The notes: generated by a model not told the origin, from the letters alone. DNA of 64,000 nucleotides from Candidatus Melainabacteria bacterium 17Bon1m (GCA_032128875.1 JAVLKG010000001.1:96001-160000); one strand, 5' to 3'; positions 10,504 through 24,169 are shown, numbered from the stretch's first letter. Numbers and translations: made by a program.

Positions 10504-11543
10504 ACAGCAATCTCCTGCTTGTCCGATTCAAATTCAGATGGTGGTGAAATTTTGTGTGGAGGTTGTTGTGCCTCTCGAGGGTGTTTGTGGAGATCAGTTA
10601 CCAGCCCGACTGCCTCCATCATGCGTAAGGCGTAGTATGTGACATCGATTTCCCACCAGAAAATACCTTGTCTAGCCGCTCCCGGAAATCGATGATGGTT
10701 GTTATGCCACCCTTCACCAAGGGTGATCAACGCTAGGGCTAGATTGTTTTTGCTTTCGTCGTCAGTTGCAAATCGTCTACTGCCAAAAATATGCCCTACA
10801 GAGTTTATGCAGCATGTCCCGTGAAACAGAACTACAGTGCTGACGAAGAATCCCCAGACTAATAGCTGCGGACCTGATGTTTGTAGCTGCGGACAGAATA
10901 TTTTGAGCATGTCGCCGACGATAAGAAGTGTGAGTGCTAAGAGAAATGGAGGCACCCAATCAAATCGATTGACGAGGACCAGTTCTGGGTATTTGGCTAG
11001 ATCAGGAATTGCGCTGTAGTCTGTGGGGATGTTCGCACTGGATGTTATCCATCCTATGTGTGACCAGAGAAAACCTTTTTGCACGGGAGAGTGCACATCA
11101 TTTTCTTTGTCCGATTCTCTGTGGTGGGTGCGGTGGTGTGCCGCCCACCATAATGGTCCGCGTTGTCCCGAGGTGGCTCCCCATACGGCGAAAACAAATT
11201 GCATAAATCGAGAAGTCGAGAATGAACGATGCGAGAAATAACGATGGTAAAAGCCGGTTATAGCAAACATCCGCAGCCAATAAAGACTGATTGCGACAAA
11301 CAAAGTGAAAATGCTCGGTTTGACCCAGAATGCCGCAAGACATGCAGCATGTAGTGCGATAAAAGGAATGCAGCGAGACGGCTCCACTGTTTTAGCTCTT
11401 GCACGAACAACTTCTGCGCCTTCTGCAAAGTAATCTGAGTCAAGGGATCGAATCAGGTTCGACAGAGAATTTCGCGCACGCGACAGCAAGTCGCTTCTTC
11501 CACAACTCACCGGCTTGATCTCCTGGGTATGAACTTCCACCAT
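10500..11543 (-). CDS. Membrane fatty-acid (delta-9 type) desaturase
   Basis: His boxes HRYFSH, HRTHH and HNNHH. Start uncertain (ATG 11543 or TTG 11597). Confidence 0.92.
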   Translation of the reverse strand: MVEVHTQEIKPVSCGRSDLLSRARNSLSNLIRSLDSDYFAEGAEVVRARAKTVEPSRCIPFIALHAACLAAFWVKPSIFTLFVAISLYWLRMFAITGFYHRYFSHRSFSTSRFMQFVFAVWGATSGQRGPLWWAAHHRTHHRESDKENDVHSPVQKGFLWSHIGWITSSANIPTDYSAIPDLAKYPELVLVNRFDWVPPFLLALTLLIVGDMLKIFCPQLQTSGPQLLVWGFFVSTVVLFHGTCCINSVGHIFGSRRFATDDESKNNLALALITLGEGWHNNHHRFPGAARQGIFWWEIDVTYYALRMMEAVGLVTDLHKHPREAQQPPHKISPPSEFESDKQEIAV

Positions 11544-11600
11544 TAGCGTAGTTTCCAACCGTGAACGAGCTGTGAACCGGCTGACCTCGCGGTTCAAAAT

Positions 11601-12548
11601 CTAAACAAGGGCTGTATTCAATGCTTGGGCCGGGGCCCAGAAGTTGCGAATTTTTTCGATCGCAAGTTCTTTTCCGCGTGCTTCTACTTCAATCCACCCG
11701 ACATCGGCAAAACAATCGGGCATTACATCGATGAAATCGCTGTGTCTGCGGTCGTGAAGCCCGGTTGTGCCGTTCGAAATATGGACTAGCTGCCAGTCTT
11801 CATTTGGGTGCCAGGTGCTTCGCGCTGCTTCCATTGCTTTTCTAATTCCTGGATCCGTGTAATCGAGGCATTTTTCCATGATCAGATGGTGATGAGCGTC
11901 AAAAATCATGCTCAGGCCAGTCTCGCAACAGATTGAAAGAATTGTGTTAGACGAATATGAAATTTCGTCGTTCTCCAGGGTCAGGCGGCTGCGAATAGTC
12001 TCGGGAAGCTCATTGATAGTGCGTTTTAGAATTTTCTCGTTGCCCCTTTTGCCGCCATGAATAATGATGGCGTTGTAAGCGCTTCTGGAAAGCCCCATCA
12101 TGTCGAAAATATCGGCATGCATCTGCAGCACCGTAATGCTATTGTCAATGACTTTCTGCGAGTCCGAGCTGAGCACGACAAACTGGTCTGGGTGCGCAAC
12201 GATACGTACGCCAAGACTTTCGGCGGTGCTGCCGATTTTTGAGAGTTGTTTTGCAAATGTCCGAAGTATTGTCAGTCCTTCAGGTGTGTCTGCGAAAGGG
12301 AAGATAGATGAAGGCATGCGATATAGCTTGATCTTGCGCTCTTGGCAGAAATGCAGTGCCTTCTCGAGCATCTGTAAGTTATCCGAGTAAATACTCGAAA
12401 TTACACGCGCTCGCTCCTCTTCACCTAAGGACAAATAGCGCGTTCTGGTTACGGTTCGATATCGAATCTCCTCACCGAACGAGATGCAGACCAGACCTAA
12501 TTCTGGGCGGCCTAATGGTTTTTCACCTTTTTGCACCTTTCTTGGCAT
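11601..12548 (-). CDS. uvsE: UV DNA damage endonuclease UvsE/UvdE
   Basis: LGLVC, HPDQFVVLSS, RLTLENDE, FDAHHH and EVEARGKE motifs. Confidence 0.92.
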   Translation of the reverse strand: MPRKVQKGEKPLGRPELGLVCISFGEEIRYRTVTRTRYLSLGEEERARVISSIYSDNLQMLEKALHFCQERKIKLYRMPSSIFPFADTPEGLTILRTFAKQLSKIGSTAESLGVRIVAHPDQFVVLSSDSQKVIDNSITVLQMHADIFDMMGLSRSAYNAIIIHGGKRGNEKILKRTINELPETIRSRLTLENDEISYSSNTILSICCETGLSMIFDAHHHLIMEKCLDYTDPGIRKAMEAARSTWHPNEDWQLVHISNGTTGLHDRRHSDFIDVMPDCFADVGWIEVEARGKELAIEKIRNFWAPAQALNTALV

Positions 12549-22025: not shown

Positions 22026-22146
22026 CGTTTAACGCACCATTCCTTTTCAAAACTTTGGTCCTATTGTAAGCGAATAAAGTTGTACGCGACTAGCGGCACC
22101 AGGTAGGAGTTCTGATTCTGAGAAGCGCCAAGCGGTTGGATTTCAT

Positions 22147-22175
22147 TTGCGTCTCGGCTTGACTTCCATTAGAAT
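22147..22175 (+). promoter_or_regulatory. sigma70-type promoter upstream of the SEC-C gene
   Basis: TTGCGT-17 nt-TAGAAT. Confidence 0.55.
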
Positions 22176-22247
22176 GCGATTCTGTCGTTTCGCCAACCTG
22201 ATATGATGGTTTAACGACATCTCTCCCTTCATTGAGAGGATAGGACA

Positions 22248-22487
22248 ATGCAATACTTTAGAGCACAAACTAACTCCTTTTGAATCGTCCAGCAAGCGAA
22301 GACGCGGGTTCCCGTCTGAGTCACGGGTTAAGCGTGGACGACGTATTGTTCATGGTGATAAAGAACTTGTAGAGAAACTCGGTCGCAAGGACTTGTGTCC
22401 GTGCGGCTCAGGACGCCGGTTTCAAAGGCTGCTGCATGACTAGCGGCCGCTTTTGACGGCATCAATCGAGATCACTACTTTAGATAA
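22248..22487 (+). CDS. Small SEC-C zinc-knuckle protein (78 aa) requiring three +1 frameshifts; alternatively a pseudogene
   Basis: AGGA RBS. Joined reading is [78 protein letters not shown]. The SEC-C motif CPCGSGxxxKxCC is complete only across the second shift. Confidence 0.75.
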
Positions 22488-22503
22488 TCGCGTTCAGCGA
22501 AGC

Positions 22504-22527
22504 GTAGGGGCGGCATAAATGCCGCCC
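22504..22527 (+). repeat. GTAG-type REP-like palindrome
   Basis: GTAG-GGGCGGCA-TAAA-TGCCGCCC. Confidence 0.55.
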
Positions 22528-22585
22528 AGCTTTGCGAAGCGAAACTTTTTGAATCCCAACATTCGTTTTGTCAAAGGAGACAAAC

Positions 22586-24169
22586 ATGATTCCACATGCG
22601 GAAATAAGAGCGAAGCATGATCGCTCATGGTCCTTTAGGTTGTTGGACGCCCTCCTTCACAGTCGACCGGAAGAAGACATCGGAGAAATTATTGAAACAA
22701 TTGCCGCGCTAGACGATCCACGGCTGGTGCCGCCTATGGTGCGTCTTTTGGAGGATGCTTCACAGCCCGCGCATCTAAGAGAATTTGTCAGCGAAGTCCT
22801 TGGGCAAATGTGCACAGGATGTTCAGAAGCAGATAGGCGCAGATGGTGGAGTTCAGGAGATCGGATTTTGCGCAGGCATGCGATTATTGAAGCTCGCACC
22901 TCTGAAGCTGACATTCTCATTCCGATAGCAAGAGATCCCAGTCATGAATTCCATCTTGATGCAATCAATAGTTTACTGTTTGGATTTGAAGAACCGGAGC
23001 AGCAGCGACTTTCTATCCAGGCACTTTCTCATCCGAATCCCGGAGTACGTATGGCAGCAGCGAACAACCTCAAATGGGAAGAACCATTTGAAGCAGAAAG
23101 TGCACTTCTCGAAGCTATTTCTGACCCAGTGTTTGACGTGGCCGATCGAGCTCTGACTACCATCTCATGGTTTCGCAGTCAGAAAGTTTTGACAGGCTTG
23201 GCGGAGCTGCGGTACTGCGCAGCTGAGGACTTTCGCGAGGAGGTAGAGGGAGTTTTTGAATGCCATAAGCAGGAATTCGAAGACGCCCTGAGCGACCTTG
23301 AAGGAGAGTCCAAAGAGTTTTTTCTGACTTGGTTAAAGCCAATAGAAAATCTAGTTTCGCTTGAGTGTCCGCGAGTCAGCGAGCAATCTGTTGAGGAATT
23401 GTCCCAACTATCTACAGAGCCTTTACCGAAGGCAAATGCTCCTGAAATTCAACGACTTAGGTCTTCCGCATTGGAGATTATGCGCTTCTATGATGATGCG
23501 GATGGCTGCTGGATTGAAAAGCAATCTTGGAATTCACCTTTTAACTGGGAAGAAGTGGGTGTTTTTGACCGACAACGACTCGCTAGATACTTCCTAAATC
23601 ATACCGATCATCTCGTTAGAGAAATGGCTTGTACACCTCTATCTCTCTGGAATTTCGGTGAAGATCTTGAAGCCTTGCTCGAAGATAGATGCGGTGGAGT
23701 AAGAAAGGCGGCTGCGTTTGCGATGCGAAGAGTAACCCCAAGTCGCTTGATTGCACTTAGTCTCTGGAATCTCTATCAGAATGTAAACAGCACAGGCTAT
23801 TGCGCAACCGAAACGCTTGAATCCTACGTCGTACATGCGCCAGCCATAGGTTTAGAAGATACCTTGTTTGAAATTGCTCAAAGCGACAGACGGCAGAACA
23901 GAAGGTCTTCGGCAATTGCCCTGTTGTGCACTCTTTATGCTGATGTGCATTTGATAAAATTGCTTGGGCTGCTCGGCGAGCCGCCGTTGCTTACTTGGGC
24001 GATTCACGCGCAACTGATTGACTATTGCGCAGAAAAACGAATCTCTACGCCTTTCTTTGCTGACCTCTCGCAAGTTGATGATCTGAATTTGCAGCGGTCG
24101 CTAGCTGGGGCTGTTCCCCATCTCCAGCCCGTTATTCTCAAGGGGGTATCATATGCAGCGAAAACCTGA
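22586..24169 (+). CDS. HEAT-repeat protein
   Basis: Repeats such as ALSHPNPGVRMAAANNL and LLEDRCGGVRKAAAFAM; AAGGAG RBS before ATG 22586. Confidence 0.75.
   Translation: MIPHAEIRAKHDRSWSFRLLDALLHSRPEEDIGEIIETIAALDDPRLVPPMVRLLEDASQPAHLREFVSEVLGQMCTGCSEADRRRWWSSGDRILRRHAIIEARTSEADILIPIARDPSHEFHLDAINSLLFGFEEPEQQRLSIQALSHPNPGVRMAAANNLKWEEPFEAESALLEAISDPVFDVADRALTTISWFRSQKVLTGLAELRYCAAEDFREEVEGVFECHKQEFEDALSDLEGESKEFFLTWLKPIENLVSLECPRVSEQSVEELSQLSTEPLPKANAPEIQRLRSSALEIMRFYDDADGCWIEKQSWNSPFNWEEVGVFDRQRLARYFLNHTDHLVREMACTPLSLWNFGEDLEALLEDRCGGVRKAAAFAMRRVTPSRLIALSLWNLYQNVNSTGYCATETLESYVVHAPAIGLEDTLFEIAQSDRRQNRRSSAIALLCTLYADVHLIKLLGLLGEPPLLTWAIHAQLIDYCAEKRISTPFFADLSQVDDLNLQRSLAGAVPHLQPVILKGVSYAAKT

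Follow-up and report, generated by a model that had tools for sequence, protein, structure and literature searches.

Recurrent UUU-pyrimidine frame breaks in a bacterial SEC-C knuckle gene point to an apparently undescribed multi-site programmed +1 recoding

To our knowledge, the bacterial examples of programmed +1 frameshifting are essentially limited to prfB and a small number of cases with a single site. Error-prone +1 shifting at UUU followed by a pyrimidine was reportedly observed in E. coli by Schwartz and Curran in 1997, and Fu and Parker are said to have seen UUU-pyrimidine +1 shifting at argI in the same organism in 1994. The accessible sections of a study of the Yersinia YopN-TyeA hybrid (PMC4914553) describe a single optional fusion, formed by a +1 shift where UUU is followed by U or C. 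In the portion of Atkins et al. (2016) available to us, UUU_U is found in a small minority of RF2 genes and is less efficient, high-level frameshifting normally needs stimulators, and multi-shift genes are known from Euplotes and mitochondria; neither zinc nor SecA is mentioned in that portion of the text. The SEC-C ligand motif is defined as CXCX8C[CH] in the accessible part of bioRxiv 10.1101/613315, where the SecA MBD is also reported to bind SecB and ribosomes, and iron in vivo.

The gene described here lies at 22248-22487 (+ strand) of the window, by which we mean the whole stretch of DNA analysed (64,000 nt). An initial annotation had read it as a SEC-C knuckle gene in which the frame must be shifted by +1 three times in succession, always at a UUU-Y Phe codon; the start codon and the TTT-TGA, TTT-CAA and TTT-TGA-C motifs that it named are all reproduced in the sequence, and its coordinates and frame readings hold to the base (Table 1). 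Following the leader, the main frame (Segment B) starts at GAA and runs through a very basic stretch to the TTT of site 2, beyond which, if unshifted, it would terminate at TAG 22441-43. No ATG, GTG or TTG start is present in this frame upstream of the Cys motif. When each in-frame TTT-Y is taken as one four-base step throughout, a single open product of 78 aa (P0001) is obtained. Since the broken-frame design recurs in relatives and in many phyla, we take it to be a real and apparently undescribed case of programmed recoding, in which one mRNA is probably decoded with three +1 ribosomal frameshifts to give a 78-residue knuckle protein.

Table 1. Features of the SEC-C gene in the window and of the tRNA arrays that enclose its homologues in Planctomycetes
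Feature	Sequence	Position	Strand	Basis
Promoter-like TTGCGT (22147-52), 17-nt spacer, TAGAAT (22170-75)	window	22147..22175	+	sequence; call of the initial annotation
Possible alternative -10-like TATGAT	window	22202..22207	+	suggested by TATAAT in the corresponding alignment columns of several relatives
Shine-Dalgarno GAGAGGA, 7 nt upstream of ATG	window	22234..22240	+	GAGG and ATG columns conserved in relatives
Segment A: 11-codon leader, ATG to Phe codon TTT	window	22248..22280	+	frame reading
Shift site 1: TTT-T, 0-frame next codon TGA (codon 11 = TTT 22278-80, TGA 22281-83)	window	22278..22283	+	
Segment B: 47 codons, E12-F58; basic N-terminal region and CPCGSGRRF half-knuckle	window	22282..22422	+	
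Shift site 2: TTT-C (TTT 22420-22), 0-frame next codon CAA	window	22420..22425	+	
Segment C: 10 codons, K59-F68, with the last two Cys ligands	window	22424..22453	+	
Shift site 3: TTT-T, TGA-C in 0 frame	window	22451..22457	+	
Segment D: 10 codons, D69-R78, and TAA stop (22485-87)	window	22455..22487	+	
GC-rich hairpin, repeated element, directly 3' of the gene	window	22496..22527	+	RNA fold and run contigs
Stieleria magnilauensis array, 33 tRNAs	L105	5792-10175		
Planctomycetaceae MAG array, 30 tRNAs	L122	3157-7702		
Third Planctomycete array (another MAG), 13 tRNAs	L125	7932-10655		

The gene resembles prfB (CUU_UGA_C) in that, with UGA in the A site (sites 1 and 3), a P-site tRNA would slip +1 to a cognate codon that overlaps the first, and the prfB gene of the host (G000:C7, ~10900-12041, L101) itself has a canonical CTT-TGA-C +1 site after codon 24. 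It differs from prfB in carrying three sites, and elsewhere up to four, in fewer than 80 codons, in using UUU as the slippery codon with no SD stimulator at the window sites, and in often having sense codons (CAA, CGA, CAG, CCG) in the A site; no autoregulatory logic is known for it. While the E. coli UUU-pyrimidine errors and YopN-TyeA obey the same rule (UUU, then U or C), the former are low-level and the latter is one optional fusion, whereas the SEC-C gene has several conserved sites without which its only functional product would not be made. Genes of Euplotes and mitochondria, according to the available part of the source, likewise have several +1 shifts each, often at a slippery codon followed by a stop and with no elaborate stimulators, but the setting there is genome-wide altered termination or organelle decoding, in contrast to a single family in ordinary bacteria in which the tetranucleotide is read normally elsewhere. 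The CXCX8CC knuckle with its conserved Ser is common to the SecA C-terminal MBD, YecA, YchJ and the SEC-C gene product, whereas a conserved basic region of 45 N-terminal residues and the DG..RD.YF tail distinguish the latter. The literature on SEC-C or UUU frameshifting and on GeneTack, as far as it was accessible, holds no description of a frameshifted SEC-C family, though the supplementary cluster lists of Antonov et al. (2013) might contain it, and multi-site UUU-Y programmed recoding of this family is apparently undescribed so far.

As predicted from the joined frames, the locus encodes a single, very basic protein of 78 residues whose metal-binding knuckle, CXCX8CC, is of the SecA type. 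The spacing of this motif (C50, C52, eight residues, C61 and C62, with Ser after CPCG) arises only after the shift at F58. Pfam SEC-C (PF02810) matches the unshifted piece over profile positions 1-14 of 19 (E 5.5e-5, 23.4 bits) and P0001 over positions 1-18 (E 2.5e-6, 27.7 bits against a cut-off of 20.4), and the PDB chains of YchJ-C (9l6b_C, E 1.7e-5) and the SecA MBD align to residues 43-62, across junction 2; the earlier claim that the second shift restores the Cys spacing is thus confirmed by both the completed profile match and the aligned chains. The first and third shifts, which the initial annotation had held to be weaker, are borne out by in-frame homologues and by the conserved C-terminus. 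P0001 matches 812 proteins of 55-137 residues from many phyla at E<=1e-3, including the in-frame homologue P0002 from a cyanobacterial MAG (75% identity over 69 residues with no gaps, E 3e-39), whose alignment extends from just before junction 1 to the last residue and so spans all three junctions. In-frame homologues read F-E at junction 1, a 16-sequence protein alignment has 26 invariant columns, and the C-terminus is conserved as DG..RD.YF followed by R[DE]-stop, while many annotated homologues stop exactly at ..GRF or ..GCF, the position of site 3.

The family to which P0001 belongs (KRRRGFPSE...CPCGSG...) is unnamed, sources using 'nucleic acid-binding protein' or 'SEC-C metal-binding domain-containing protein', and neither Pfam nor NCBIfam has a family for the basic N-terminal 45 residues or the DG..RD.YF tail. 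The YecA, YchJ and PBPRA1643 NCBIfam equivalogs were considered and rejected, the best reaching 28.7 bits against 140 (cut-offs of the YecA/YchJ-type models 120-158) and TIGR04102 19.6 bits against 68, with matches to the knuckle only. An AlphaFold model of the joined protein, built on a 47-sequence alignment, is of low confidence (pLDDT 51.2, pTM 0.31). Because SecA-type knuckles bind SecB and ribosomes according to the accessible part of 10.1101/613315, a ribosome-associated role of the predicted product is plausible but unproven.

Upstream of the gene, the promoter TTGCGT-17-TAGAAT of the initial annotation is partly upheld: the hexamers are present and the stretch is kept in most same-genus loci, whereas a consensus promoter scan called nothing. 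The ribosome-binding site assigned to ATG 22248 stands, the GAGAGGA element being both present and conserved. The sequence TCTCTC (22220-25) is able to pair with GAGAGG (22234-39) of this element, and relatives of the window locus have CCCTCC-type sequences at the same place; the pairing may constitute a candidate SD-sequestering hairpin. On the 3' side of the gene a terminator scan found nothing, and the 32-nt stretch 22496-22527 is the sole match of a second contig in each of four runs. In the 10 family loci aligned from ATG, the leader has a constant length of 11 codons and a variable peptide that always ends S-F. Segment A has no third-position bias among relatives (differences of 0.28, 0.25 and 0.22 at codon positions 1, 2 and 3), its conserved features being its length and the final S-F only. 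The leaders of L002, L004 and L005 contain a second in-frame TTT-T at codon 8, where a slip would also enter the main frame, so that these loci have two alternative entry points.

The same frame breaks are found in related genomes. A homologous locus is present in 12/60 relatives searched (8/12 same-genus genomes and four from other genera of the family), and 11 relatives retain the same shift sites. In the DNA alignment site 1 (CTCCTTTTGA) is identical across 13/13 family loci. Site 2 reads TTTCAA in nine of 12 family loci and TTTTAA in two, and is in frame in one (L010), while site 3 is TTTTGA in 11/12 and in frame in L011. A further site, TTT-TAG at the last Phe with AGR and a stop in the +1 frame, is used in 10/12 relatives; it is in frame in L001, in L004 and in the window. 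Such isolated in-frame exceptions fix the place of each frame change. In L005 (G007:C37, minus strand, ~1391-1690) a 31-nt tandem duplication extends from site 2 to site 3 with a TTT-Y site in each copy, and the frame is open only if the extra site is also shifted, four-base steps giving an 88-aa product in which the decapeptide KGCCISSGRF occurs twice. In L013 (G036:C6) the leader and site 1 are kept, a TAA follows alignment residue 39, and the sequence then diverges; this is probably a truncated or disrupted copy.

Contigs of four runs from three studies cover 22050-22650 without a gap and with at most one substitution. Two of these runs are RNA libraries, whose contigs, given lengths of 15-33 kb, may be of DNA origin and are no proof of transcription. 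Each of 20 genomes checked has a single full-length copy of the gene. That three sequencing errors were unlikely, as had been argued from the window, is now supported by four independent run assemblies without indels and 11 relatives with the same sites, and from these sequence comparisons sequencing error and a pseudogene are excluded.

The frame breaks extend far beyond the family. A scan using one genome per species gave at least 595 loci, the best 80 of which were taken for analysis, and P0001 was aligned to each locus by dynamic programming that allows frameshifts, initially with unconstrained shift positions and in a second round with a low-cost in-frame TTT-Y move. Ninety of 93 loci scored well, comprising 11 from the family (the window included) and 79 others (from the best 80 of at least 595); L029 is the same DNA as family locus L010, and L031 the same as L003. 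Carriers among the matches listed belong to Planctomycetota, Acidobacteriota, Gemmatimonadota, Verrucomicrobiota, Chloroflexota, Deinococcales, Clostridia, Actinomycetota and several proteobacterial classes, the cultured ones listed being Massilia pinisoli, Caulobacter sp. CCUG 60055, Stieleria magnilauensis and Acidobacteriaceae KBS 96. Among the 79 other-lineage loci (again from the best 80 of at least 595), a shift is required at site 2 or 3 in 67 and at some site in 76, site 3 of the window type being present in 48. For all 90 loci (including the best 80 of at least 595) the number of shifts per locus is 0 in three, 1 in 18, 2 in 47, 3 in 14 and 4 in eight. A TTT-Y shift is assigned at site 2 in 23 loci (64 in frame, 3 with another shift, 0 uncovered) and at site 3 in 57 (26 in frame, 7 with another shift, 0 uncovered); the corresponding counts of 27 at site 1 (36 in frame, 0 other, 27 uncovered) and 69 at site 4 (13 in frame, 0 other, 8 uncovered) depend in the wide set on a permissive alignment penalty and may be somewhat too high. 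The initial annotation had left it to be seen whether unrelated taxa keep the extra base at the same Phe codons; they do, in many phyla.

The sites follow a simple sequence rule. An in-frame TTT followed by T or C underlies 176/186 inferred shifts in the 90 loci (including the best 80 of at least 595), and most of the remaining ten also involve slippery arrangements: CTT-C or CTT-T in four Acidobacteria, AAA-A in L086 and a two-base case, TTTTC, in L092. The literal CTT-TGA of prfB occurs at site 3 in a few homologues, as CTT-TGA-T in L087 and as CTT-TGA-C in L069, where AGGAGG four bases upstream makes the site nearly a copy of the prfB cassette. The CTG-TGA variant of L100 contains no homopolymer and does not fit the slippery pattern. 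The fourth base alternates between T and C irrespective of whether a stop codon is created, so that the next 0-frame codon is a stop (TGA, TAA, TAG) or a sense codon (CGA, CAA, CAG, CCG) depending on the next amino acid. Within the same 90 loci (the best 80 of at least 595 included) C is preferred over T by 21:2 at site 2, and T over C by 50:7 at site 3 and 49:20 at site 4, while in-frame members use TTC over TTT by 56:7 at site 2 and 44:17 at site 1, with site 3 about even. Independent support for site 4 comes from 69/69 loci (including the best 80 of at least 595) with TTT-Y at the last Phe, where the +1 frame closes after 1-4 codons, its tail starting R or FR and being mostly R[DE]-stop, like that of in-frame members; the 0-frame reading meets an immediate stop in 39 loci and otherwise mostly gives unrelated read-through sequence. 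These patterns are those that would be expected of tRNA-Phe(GAA) leaving a wobble-paired UUU and re-pairing on UUY.

Coding constraint was measured as pairwise differences in the inferred frames, the wide set being drawn from the best 80 of at least 595 loci. In relatives the differences at codon positions 1, 2 and 3 are 0.105, 0.087 and 0.369 for Segment B, 0.160, 0.115 and 0.267 for Segment C, and 0.163, 0.071 and 0.381 for Segment D. In the wide set, position 3 reaches 0.58 in Segment B against 0.17-0.18 at positions 1 and 2, 0.55 against 0.26-0.30 in Segment C, and 0.51 against 0.20-0.27 in Segment D. The segments past each break evolve under codon-level constraint in their shifted frames. 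The frame breaks at the same codon across species with coding constraint on both sides, and UUU-U or UUU-C is found at all three window sites. Taken with the relatives, the many phyla and the in-frame homologues, the comparative evidence argues strongly for the three successive +1 shifts at UUU-Y Phe codons originally put forward.

In the proposed mechanism translation would start at AUG 22248, and at each site the peptidyl-tRNA-Phe (anticodon GAA) on P-site UUU would re-pair one base downstream, on UUU at sites 1 and 3 and on UUC at site 2 (G:U wobble to G:C), decoding resuming with GAA, AAA and GAC after sites 1, 2 and 3, respectively. A ribosome that failed to slip at site 1 would end at UGA 22281 with an 11-aa peptide, one that failed at site 2 would end at UAG 22441 with a product lacking two Cys ligands, and one that failed at site 3 would end at UGA 22454 with a product lacking the conserved tail. 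Because non-slipping ribosomes would terminate early, the output would be the product of three slip frequencies; such multiplied slips would keep basal expression low and make the response steep to changes in tRNA-Phe slippage. That such a gene might sense tRNA-Phe modification, RF2 level or ribosome stress, as the initial annotation suggested, is plausible.

Several observations sit badly with this mechanism in its simple form. At ordinary slip rates three successive shifts would yield almost no protein. No SD-like element at prfB-like spacing is present at the three window sites, GGAGG upstream of a site being found only in some homologues (L036, L047 and L069), and no stimulator common to all sites, SD-like or 3' structure, was found. 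The window mRNA folds better than shuffled sequences (z = -3.0). A conserved RNA structure was rejected as stimulator, the 13-bp hairpin that links sites 2 and 3 being confined to the family (RNAalifold energy of the region -15.8 kcal/mol for the family against -0.3 for 89 sequences). The A-site codon is UGA at sites 1 and 3 and CAA at site 2, and stops and sense codons interchange family-wide; since CAA is a sense codon in a genome with three tRNA-Gln(UUG) genes, no pause is obvious at site 2. In-frame TTT-Y is not avoided in the 2,442 long ORFs of the genome (8,923 instances), where TTT makes up 0.45 of the Phe codons before T, 0.52 before C, 0.30 before A and 0.49 before G. The family itself contains 30 in-frame TTT-Y codons at which normal triplet decoding is required, among them the TTT-C that encodes the invariant F21 in four loci. 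UUU-Y alone is therefore insufficient for efficient shifting, and either the efficiency is low, with the protein made in traces or under certain conditions only, or a signal has been overlooked.

The genomic neighbourhood of the gene was compared among loci. Within the genus a divergent methyltransferase gene lies upstream in 7/12 loci and a fast-evolving HEAT-repeat gene (27-34% identity) downstream in 6/12. The proposed control of this HEAT-repeat gene finds little support, as it is a neighbour in only half of the 12 family loci and is not among the Pfam families recurring beside the gene in 15 other-lineage loci. Around 15 diverse loci, 86 ORFs gave 114 Pfam families, none in more than three ORFs and hence no conserved protein-coding neighbour; one of the 114 is the Tpt1/KptA RNA 2'-phosphotransferase. 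tRNA genes lie within 600 nt in 12/80 loci (the best 80 of at least 595). In some Planctomycetes the gene is located inside tRNA arrays (Table 1), on the same strand, between tRNA-Arg(GCG) and tRNA-Cys(GCA). The arrays of L105 and L122 start with a G37 tRNA-Phe (loop CUGAAGA) and contain tRNA-Ile(UAU), and both genomes have a canonical A37 tRNA-Phe copy elsewhere. The window holds no tRNA gene. Its genome (G000) has a second tRNA(GAA) with G37 and the loop CUGAAGA (G000:C1:269233-269307, minus strand; L118/L119), with an 8-bp acceptor stem and a 6-bp anticodon stem containing an A.A mismatch, which is the last gene of a 10-tRNA array ~150 kb from the SEC-C gene and is conserved in 12/40 relatives searched (88-97% identity). 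A pattern search of limited sensitivity in 10 other genomes with the frameshifted gene gave 10 matches, none of them a tRNA, and since no G37 tRNA(GAA) was found in these carriers the link does not appear to be general. ARAGORN found no tRNA with a four-base anticodon among 68 G000 tRNAs; it reports a tRNA-like gene at G000:C3:1007950-1008023 with a two-base anticodon and a six-base loop, tRNA-?(Glu|Arg)(tc).

Several other readings of the locus have to be weighed. That the gene is a pseudogene or an assembly artefact, with a short upstream peptide or nothing made, deserves scarcely any credence: gene callers do annotate fragments only (e.g., P0029 and P0034) and one family locus is cut off after residue 39, but independent assemblies agree, the same indel positions recur in many phyla, codon-level constraint persists past the breaks, and 20/20 genomes checked retain one full-length copy. 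Correction might instead occur in the RNA, polymerase slippage or editing dropping one U per run (TTTT to UUU, TTTC to UUC), which would restore the frame, keep Phe everywhere and explain the pyrimidine at the fourth base. Known transcriptional slippage needs much longer homopolymers than the U runs of only 3-4 seen here. The available passages of Atkins et al. (2016) are consistent with slippage needing long homopolymers. The CTG-TGA site of L100 has no homopolymer to lose a base from, and the contigs of RNA libraries X2 and X3 match the genomic sequence with no gaps, although this is weak evidence against editing because rare variants are lost from contigs, which may also be of DNA origin. 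We consider correction of the transcript quite improbable, and the ribosome the likelier place of correction.

A dedicated shift-prone tRNA, with an expanded anticodon loop or in the form of the G37 tRNA(GAA) of the arrays, might read UUU-Y as four bases, and the G37 gene kept in the 10-tRNA array of G000 and 12/40 relatives, together with the G37 tRNA-Phe of the 30- and 33-tRNA Planctomycete arrays around the gene, would suit such a decoder. Yet G000 lacks a four-base anticodon among its 68 tRNAs, the limited-sensitivity pattern detected no G37 tRNA(GAA) in the 10 other genomes, and a general four-base reader would be harmful because in-frame TTT-Y is common in normal genes, so that we hold this reading to be very doubtful. 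Alternatively, the frameshifting may be real and act as a throttle only, holding a harmful basic protein at trace level with no sensing role. The lack of a stimulator and the variation from 0 to 4 sites among lineages, as expected of interchangeable dimmers, are in keeping with this, but a weak promoter or weak RBS would be simpler, the preference for C over T at site 2 (21 to 2) avoids UAA in the knuckle and suggests selection for productive shifting, and the position inside tRNA arrays points to a link with translation; such a throttle seems to us somewhat unlikely. Beyond three successive +1 shifts on one mRNA, our preferred reading, a bolder and rather improbable extension is that the gene belongs functionally to the tRNA and translation apparatus as a frameshift-gated, ultrasensitive gauge of the tRNA-Phe decoding state. 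Its output would rise with the third or fourth power of the UUU-Y +1 slip rate, the G37 tRNA-Phe of the arrays may be a natural shifty decoder, and the putative ribosome- or tRNA-binding knuckle would feed back on frame maintenance as RF2 does on termination.

Over many phyla this family keeps two to four obligatory +1 sites in 80 codons, using the simplest possible signal (UUU-Y) and often neither a stop codon nor a visible stimulator. This raises the questions of where the efficiency of the sites comes from and what repeatedly selects for them. Hundreds of these genes are mis-annotated as fragments, or missed, by gene callers. The family is a natural reporter of reading-frame fidelity and tRNA-Phe status, with a possible link between tRNA arrays and recoding.
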